Of a stretch of 64,000 nt of DNA, positions 59,430 through 59,854 are shown in pieces. The DNA lies in NCBI RefSeq assembly GCF_011045215.1, contig NZ_CP049201.1, one strand, 5' to 3'. Positions within the stretch are counted from its first letter, which is position 1; each line of letters starts with the position of its first letter. The notes under the pieces are model-generated. The model made no database searches and was not told the origin of the DNA. It was given only the letters and a program-made list of their open reading frames with translations. The position numbers were made by a program, and so were the translations under genes. This DNA is from Escherichia coli (lineage in GTDB: Bacteria; Pseudomonadota; Gammaproteobacteria; Enterobacterales; Enterobacteriaceae).

Positions 59430-59467
59430 AAAATCAAGGAAGAAACAAGAAAGGAAGTAAAGATAAT

Positions 59468-59554
59468 TGGTGCGAGGGGGGGGACTTGAACCCCCACGTC
59501 CGTAAGGACACTAACACCTGAAGCTAGCGCGTCTACCAATTCCGCCACCTTCGC
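59468..59554 (-). tRNA. leuV: tRNA-Leu (anticodon CAG)
   Basis: Reverse complement reads GCGAAGGTGGCGGAATTGGTAGACGCGCTAGCTTCAGGTGTTAGTGTCCTTACGGACGTGGGGGTTCAAGTCCCCCCCCTCGCACCA, an 87-nt type II tRNA with long variable arm and encoded CCA. Confidence 0.93.
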
Positions 59555-59690
59555 ATACCATCAATTCTTAAAAAGAATTGCTACCACGGAGGCGCATTCT
59601 AGTGGTTTTCAGCTTTTCGTCAATAGTTAATTATCGACGGAGGTGTAATTGCTGGAAAAATGTCCATCAGGAGACTAACGTGCAGGTTTT

Positions 59691-59846
59691 GTAAGTCGGA
59701 TAAGGCGTTCACGCCGCATCCGACACGGTATTGGGGTGCAGATGCCAGATGCGACGCTGGCGCGTCTTATCTGGCCTACGAAGGGCTAACGTGCAGGTTT
59801 TGTAAGTCGGATAAGGCGTTCACGCCGCATCCGACACGGTATTCGG
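59691..59846. repeat. REP element cluster (two near-identical ~60-bp units)
   Basis: acgtgcaggttttgtaagtcggataaggcgttcacgccgcatccgacacggtatt occurs twice, with an inverted copy between them. Confidence 0.85.
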
Positions 59847-59854
59847 CGAGATAA

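Follow-up and report, generated by a model that had tools for sequence, protein, structure and literature searches.

In Escherichia coli K-12 MG1655, the leuQ-leuP-leuV operon (also called the tRNA-Leu1 operon or leuV operon) consists of three tandem 87-nt tRNA-Leu genes separated by spacers of 28 nt (leuQ-leuP) and 34 nt (leuP-leuV). Unequal sister-strand exchange and replication slippage classically cause deletions between perfect direct repeats of this kind (87 bp, lying 28 to 149 bp apart), and Lovett and colleagues have reportedly described such deletions at short tandem repeats in E. coli. The operon is transcribed in the order leuQ, leuP, leuV (Mohanty and Kushner, PMC2190699), and the sequence that follows each CCA is CCAAAAACC (AAAACC) for leuQ, CCAAACGAG (AACGAG) for leuP and CCAAUUAUC (AUUAUC) for leuV (PMC2190699). 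The leuV trailer undergoes Rho-dependent termination and exonucleolytic trimming, as described in the same work (PMC2190699).

The corresponding locus was examined in a 64-kb stretch of E. coli DNA, referred to here as the window. It shares with the K-12 operon its position, the tRNA, the promoter and leader and the 3' trailer, but it holds one gene rather than three, lacks both the 28-nt and the 34-nt spacer (the inter-tRNA sequences AAAACCACGTTGATATTGCTCGCACTGG and AACGAGGCGATATCAAAAAAAGTAAGATGACTGT of the three-copy array were absent) and has a complete second 61-nt REP unit. The features of the locus are as follows.

59193 to 59429, plus strand: yjjZ, 78 aa, DUF1435, the left neighbor, convergent with the tRNA gene (open reading frame in frame with 59082 to 59429; collinearity).
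59430 to 59467, minus strand: leuV-type 3' trailer, CCA followed by ATTATC... (alignment to the yjjZ-proximal K-12 flank; PMC2190699).
59468 to 59554, minus strand: tRNA-Leu(CAG), read as a leuQ/leuV fusion and the sole survivor of the leuQ-leuP-leuV array (ARAGORN, Rfam, alignment).
59555 to 59660, minus strand: leuQ-type 5' leader and promoter region (consensus scan, alignment).
59675 to 59846, no strand assigned: REP/BIME cluster between the leu promoter and the rsmC end (direct repeat family D2, REP core count, Rfam naRNA4).
59855 to 60886, minus strand: rsmC, 16S rRNA m2G1207 methyltransferase, 343 aa, the right neighbor (open reading frame; collinearity).

The gene at 59468 to 59554 was the only tRNA gene that ARAGORN found in the 64-kb window. 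It was called as an 87-nt tRNA-Leu on the minus strand with the anticodon cag at position 35, a length that accommodates the long variable arm. Against Rfam RF00005 it scored 48.5 bits (E = 4.5e-9; gathering score, 29), and alignment to the copies in K-12, O157:H7 and O111:H2 gave 0 mismatches. The CCA is encoded, the gene ending in ...CGCACCA. Fold, anticodon, identity and encoded CCA all agree in placing the gene in the tRNA-Leu1 isoacceptor group (leuQ/P/V/T type). Base 48 is C, as in leuQ and leuV, T48 being typical of the wild-type leuP.

Both neighbors, yjjZ and rsmC, were identified through collinearity with the annotated K-12, O157:H7 and O111:H2 records, and the RsmC protein of the window has the same sequence as one that is very widespread in E. 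coli. The distance from the yjjZ stop codon to the 3' end of the tRNA is 38 nt, and that from the tRNA to the rsmC end is 300 nt. The position between these two genes and the conserved promoter and leader identify the leuQ-leuP-leuV operon locus, which departs from its description in having one gene in place of three. The stretch from the tRNA 5' end to the REP cluster is nearly invariant among the window, K-12, O157:H7, O111:H2 and two wild three-copy loci, with a few distal substitutions. It contains a sigma-70-like site with a -35 element TTGACG (59623 to 59618), a 16-nt spacer and a -10 element TAGAAT ending at 59596 (10 of 12 consensus matches), which by its position and consensus is the putative operon promoter. 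On the other side of the gene, a consensus scan found no intrinsic terminator on the minus strand at the trailer, and the trailer at 59430 to 59467 would open an unstructured, Rho-dependent terminator region that converges on the yjjZ end. The possibility that an element had inserted at the tRNA gene was rejected, the flanks being intact and no integrase gene adjoining it in the window.

The REP/BIME cluster comprises a 61-nt direct repeat at 59675 to 59735 and 59786 to 59846 (98% identical) placed around a central inverted REP at about 59736 to 59785. Six copies of the REP core GGATAAGGCGTTCACGCCGCATCC were counted in the window, where 0 would be expected, and the segment from 59694 to 59776 on the plus strand scored 70.9 bits against the REP-derived Rfam family naRNA4 (RF02564; gathering score, 59.5). 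Clustered direct and inverted units, enrichment of the core and a naRNA4 match above threshold thus coincide at 59675 to 59846. The naRNA4 model derives from a REP element elsewhere, and the match here probably reflects a general resemblance among REP sequences and not a separate sRNA gene. The preliminary description of this DNA had reported a single 87-nt tRNA-Leu(CAG) gene between yjjZ and rsmC with a REP cluster beside it, and had given three tandem copies for K-12. All of this stands, the first point on ARAGORN, Rfam and the collinear records, the second on the repeat units, core count and naRNA4 score, and the third on the annotated MG1655 record.

Comparison with three-copy loci revealed that the window is equivalent to such a locus minus exactly 236 bp (87+28+87+34), corresponding to two tRNA units and both spacers, and that the flanks align ungapped. 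The single gene is preceded by the leuQ promoter and leader and followed by the leuV trailer, with no scar; the window reads CCAATTATC, and its trailer matches CCAAUUAUC of leuV, the last gene of the operon. Since it combines the leuQ 5' flank with the leuV 3' flank, with both spacers and two units absent, the window gene is a scarless leuQ/leuV fusion. The features of a repeat deletion are present, namely, an ancestral multicopy state (see below), a junction inside the repeat and the loss of whole repeat-plus-spacer units. We therefore consider it very probable that the window carries a real, deletion-derived one-copy allele of the leuQ-leuP-leuV tRNA-Leu(CAG) operon. The proposal made earlier, that two copies had been lost by recombination between the repeats, is supported by the ancestral three-copy state and by the exact, scarless 236-bp junction.

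In the proposed route, the starting point would be an ancestral array of three 87-bp genes, identical or one base apart, with unique 28- and 34-nt spacers. Misalignment of leuQ, the first gene, with leuV, the last, would have removed the 236 bp. This could have occurred by unequal crossing-over or by replication slippage, in one step or through a two-copy intermediate. The locus has in common with tandem-repeat deletion in E. coli the perfect 87-bp repeats 28 to 149 bp apart, the scarless single-repeat product and the presence in the population of two-copy intermediates of both possible kinds; it differs in that the mechanism is deduced here from the product only. As the repeats are identical, the crossover point cannot be placed within the array, and a RecA-dependent and a RecA-independent route would leave the same product, not separable by sequence.

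The copy number at this locus was then classified in 5,426 complete E. coli genomes with short, junction-specific queries at a coverage of at least 80%. Counts based on the coverage of long queries were set aside because pieces around the repeated tRNA were joined or split inconsistently. The 34-nt spacer with 30-nt tRNA flanks was found in 4,985 genomes and the 28-nt spacer with 30-nt tRNA flanks in 4,980, and both spacers around leuP, the signature of the three-copy form, were present in 4,963 genomes (91.5%, three or more copies). The one-copy form, in which 40 nt of left flank, the tRNA and 40 nt of right flank fall in one alignment, was found in 424 genomes (7.8%). Two-copy genomes numbered about 22 and 17 for the two kinds (~39, 0.7%), and the four classes total 5,426. 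The preliminary description had counted a single copy in most E. coli as grounds against its reading, and the three copies in 4,963 of 5,426 genomes show that this is not the case.

Two flank types were distinguished among the one-copy genomes. Most of them, about 330 to 365 as estimated from identity bands and an evenly spaced sample, carry the O157:H7-type flank, which is marked by two substitutions in the yjjZ-tRNA spacer; O157:H7 itself also shows a 111-bp loss in the REP cluster. The flank of the window was matched at 100% identity in at least 60 one-copy genomes, including HS30-1, C311, SMBL, isolates from guinea fowl, baboon and dog, the AVS wastewater series, chicken-meat isolates and APEC O78:H51 E18005. 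The precise junction of yjjZ flank, tRNA and leader is the same in the window as in O157:H7 (for example, PA20) and about 60 to 90 other complete genomes. The spacer bases of the window, in contrast to those of O157:H7, are K-12-like, indicating that the window does not belong to the O157:H7 haplotype. The number of places per genome that matched the tRNA was two in one-copy genomes of the window type, three in those of the O157:H7 type and four in three-copy genomes; the second place in the window-type genomes is presumably leuT.

The one-copy deletion has clearly arisen more than once. In addition to the distinct O157:H7 haplotype, the K-12 derivatives MC1061 and ME8067 have one copy each, whereas MG1655, JM109, KLY and BM28 have three. 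The FhuF, YjjZ and RsmC proteins of MC1061 are identical to those of MG1655, and the MC1061 and ME8067 assemblies probably represent one MC1061 line. Two APEC O78:H51 strains differ, with one copy in E18005 and three in E19025. Both possible kinds of two-copy genome exist, exemplified by O111:H2 12A, which retains the 34-nt spacer. A one-copy allele was also observed at 2800 to 2966 of NZ_CP035486.1 (NissleGFP_pZE21, a laboratory strain derived from E. coli Nissle 1917); it lies some 3 kb into the record and may be an artifact of assembly linearization. Some public single-copy calls could be assembly errors, while O157:H7 is consistent across hundreds of assemblies. The literature on leuQPV processing, deletion and mutation and on variation in tRNA copy number was searched, and a description of the one-copy polymorphism was not found there. 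The one-copy allele is an ordinary, recurrent copy-number polymorphism that is already visible in public annotations, such as those of O157:H7.

The REP cluster beside the leu promoter is an indel hotspot in its own right. Full 61-nt REP units number two in the window and in another locus described below (L015), and a second such locus (L014) has an additional 8 nt. In K-12 and O111:H2, one unit is shorter by 33 nt. The 111 bp missing from O157:H7 lie between the two 61-nt direct repeats, and this loss would be a second repeat-mediated deletion at the leu locus.

A real one-copy allele could also have reached this strain by homologous recombination from another single-copy E. coli. Core genes of E. 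coli recombine often, and the unrelated C311, GF66.2 and AVS series share the window's layout of one tRNA and two REP units and align to 12 kb in one piece. Over the 12 kb of flanking sequence, however, these genomes share only 98.5 to 98.7% identity with the window and are no nearer to it than genomes with three copies, and no donor was identifiable among the genomes compared. The complete E. coli genomes closest to the window reached a best DNA identity of 98.5 to 98.8% over 12 to 20 kb. Contigs encoding an OpgB protein identical to that of the window had 98.4 to 99.0% DNA identity and three copies, and the two of them that span the locus (L014 and L015) carry these beside a two-unit REP layout equal or almost equal to that of the window, so that they show the undeleted form of the window locus. 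As de novo deletion happens easily (compare MC1061), import of the allele is an unlikely origin.

An artifact of assembly, in which a strain that truly has three copies had its 87-bp tandem repeats collapsed into one, was judged less likely still. The walk from the left flank through the tRNA to the right flank is valid in a de Bruijn graph, and the array evidently troubles some assemblies: the Logan short-read contigs L017 and L018 break about 30 nt inside the tRNA, and GCA_949281885.1 (L007) is garbled at the leu array, with Ns and four to five partial or overlapping tRNA-Leu calls. The breaks in the Logan contigs are uninformative on copy number because they are expected at any copy number. 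Against a collapse, the source of the window is a finished chromosome rather than a draft, and the array is only ~320 bp long with unique spacers, which long reads or k-mers above 87 resolve. Even the draft assemblies L014 to L016 resolved all three copies, and the identical single-copy junction recurs in the 424 complete genomes, including the separate MC1061 and ME8067 assemblies. We therefore retain the deletion-derived one-copy allele as the reading of this locus.

A different kind of anomaly was observed in one MG1655 assembly (NZ_CP025268.1), where the annotation gives leuV, the yjjZ-proximal gene (1380 to 1467 of the retrieved locus), a length of 88 nt, its G/C run counting nine rather than eight, probably a homopolymer error of that assembly. 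Frameshift (indel) mutations in leuP, leuQ, leuV and leuT have been reported in evolved lines (bioRxiv 10.1101/355404), and the G/C run of leuV would be a plausible hotspot for such indels.

To establish which copy number is ancestral, the locus was retrieved by way of RsmC from a single genome of each species, and 51 of these Enterobacteriaceae loci were scanned for tRNAs. Three tRNA-Leu(CAG) genes adjoin rsmC in 48 of the 51 species representatives, with a spacing similar to that in K-12. Among the genera concerned are Escherichia (E. albertii and another species), Citrobacter, Klebsiella, Raoultella, Kluyvera, Enterobacter, Lelliottia, Leclercia, Kosakonia, Trabulsiella and Phytobacter. Two genes were found in one representative (Klebsiella pneumoniae ATCC 13883) and one gene in two (Escherichia whittamii Sa2BVA5 and Enterobacter sichuanensis; L070, L021 and L082, respectively). 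Together with the 91.5% of E. coli genomes that have three copies, this distribution indicates that three copies are the ancestral state. Moreover, the sequences of the two spacers bear no relation to each other and leuP has a marker of its own, C48T, from which it follows that the three-gene array is old and the one-gene state derived. The converse, that a single copy was ancestral and K-12-like strains expanded to three by tandem duplication, a known process for tRNA genes (PMC7661048, PMC10954465), is refuted by this survey, with its 48 of 51 three-copy representatives of like spacing in many genera, by spacers too dissimilar for a recent duplication and by a leuP C48T marker that spans Escherichia species, and its probability is practically nil.

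The E. whittamii locus aligns collinearly with the window (93.8% identity) and likewise combines one tRNA with a cluster of two REP units; it comes from a SPAdes assembly labelled cov 8.8, in which collapse may have occurred.

The C48T difference lies in the stem of the variable arm, where it changes C-G to U-G, and it distinguishes leuP from leuQ and leuV in nearly all of the wild Escherichia loci examined (L004 to L016 and L022 to L024). It was also present in leuP of E. albertii and of two other representatives of Escherichia species (L022, L024). K-12 has C48 in leuP as in leuQ, and at one locus (L004) T48 has spread to leuV; these patterns suggest gene conversion within the leu array. One-copy strains, including that of the window, keep the C48 form only and have lost the minor T48 tRNA variant.

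With regard to function, the strong operon promoter should still drive the surviving gene, and processing should be normal, with a yield of one tRNA per transcript rather than three. Normal expression and processing are predicted because the promoter, the leader and the unstructured trailer are all kept. The genome would hold two tRNA-Leu(CAG) genes, that of the window and leuT, the latter expected outside the window, in place of four. The one-copy allele therefore likely cuts the dosage of tRNA-Leu(CAG) genes by half, leaving two of four. CUG is among the most abundant codons of E. coli (bioRxiv 10.1101/355404).

The nearest experimental counterpart is found in the work of Raval et al. (2023, eLife, PMC9981150), whose strain set included a leuVPQ deletion. 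They found that the copies left in place make up only in part for the tRNA genes deleted and that the loss of redundancy is costly in rich media, with slower growth, and often beneficial in poor media (PMC9981150). The engineered leuVPQ strain and the natural allele affect the same abundant tRNA and both reduce its dosage, but the former loses all three genes, leaving leuT only, whereas the latter keeps one. One-copy alleles appear to be near universal in O157:H7 and sporadic elsewhere, and also occur in MC1061. It is conceivable, although we regard it as rather doubtful, that the leuQPV array acts as a recombination-prone dosage dial for the most abundant tRNA, that the one-copy state is favored where maximal growth is rare and that the window strain represents an independent, selected reduction and not a neutral accident.

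Because the dosage of tRNA-Leu(CAG) differs twofold between strains, K-12 tRNA counts, and with them K-12-based models of growth rate, codon optimization and the whole cell, are not automatically transferable to about 8% of strains. A single copy at the leu locus should not automatically be flagged as an assembly error. For studies of tRNA redundancy, the survey provides a baseline of 91.5% of genomes with three copies, about 0.7% with two and 7.8% with one, and the locus offers a clear case of structural polymorphism, both common and recurrent, in a core translation gene cluster.

Some further observations were made elsewhere in the window. A repeat scan of the 64 kb revealed no repeated IS. 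A 735-aa open reading frame on the minus strand (8596 to 10803) contains about ten tandem 24-nt (8-codon) repeats at 8658 to 8986. At 790 to 6030, also on the minus strand, is a gene for a 1,746-aa inverse autotransporter, named IatD by NCBI (QIF15152.1); in an exact look-up, its sequence was found in the source chromosome and the Logan assembly of SRR11014969 only. A 4-hydroxyphenylacetate (hpa) catabolic cluster occupies about 26000 to 46000, upstream of tsr, according to the names annotated in matching records.
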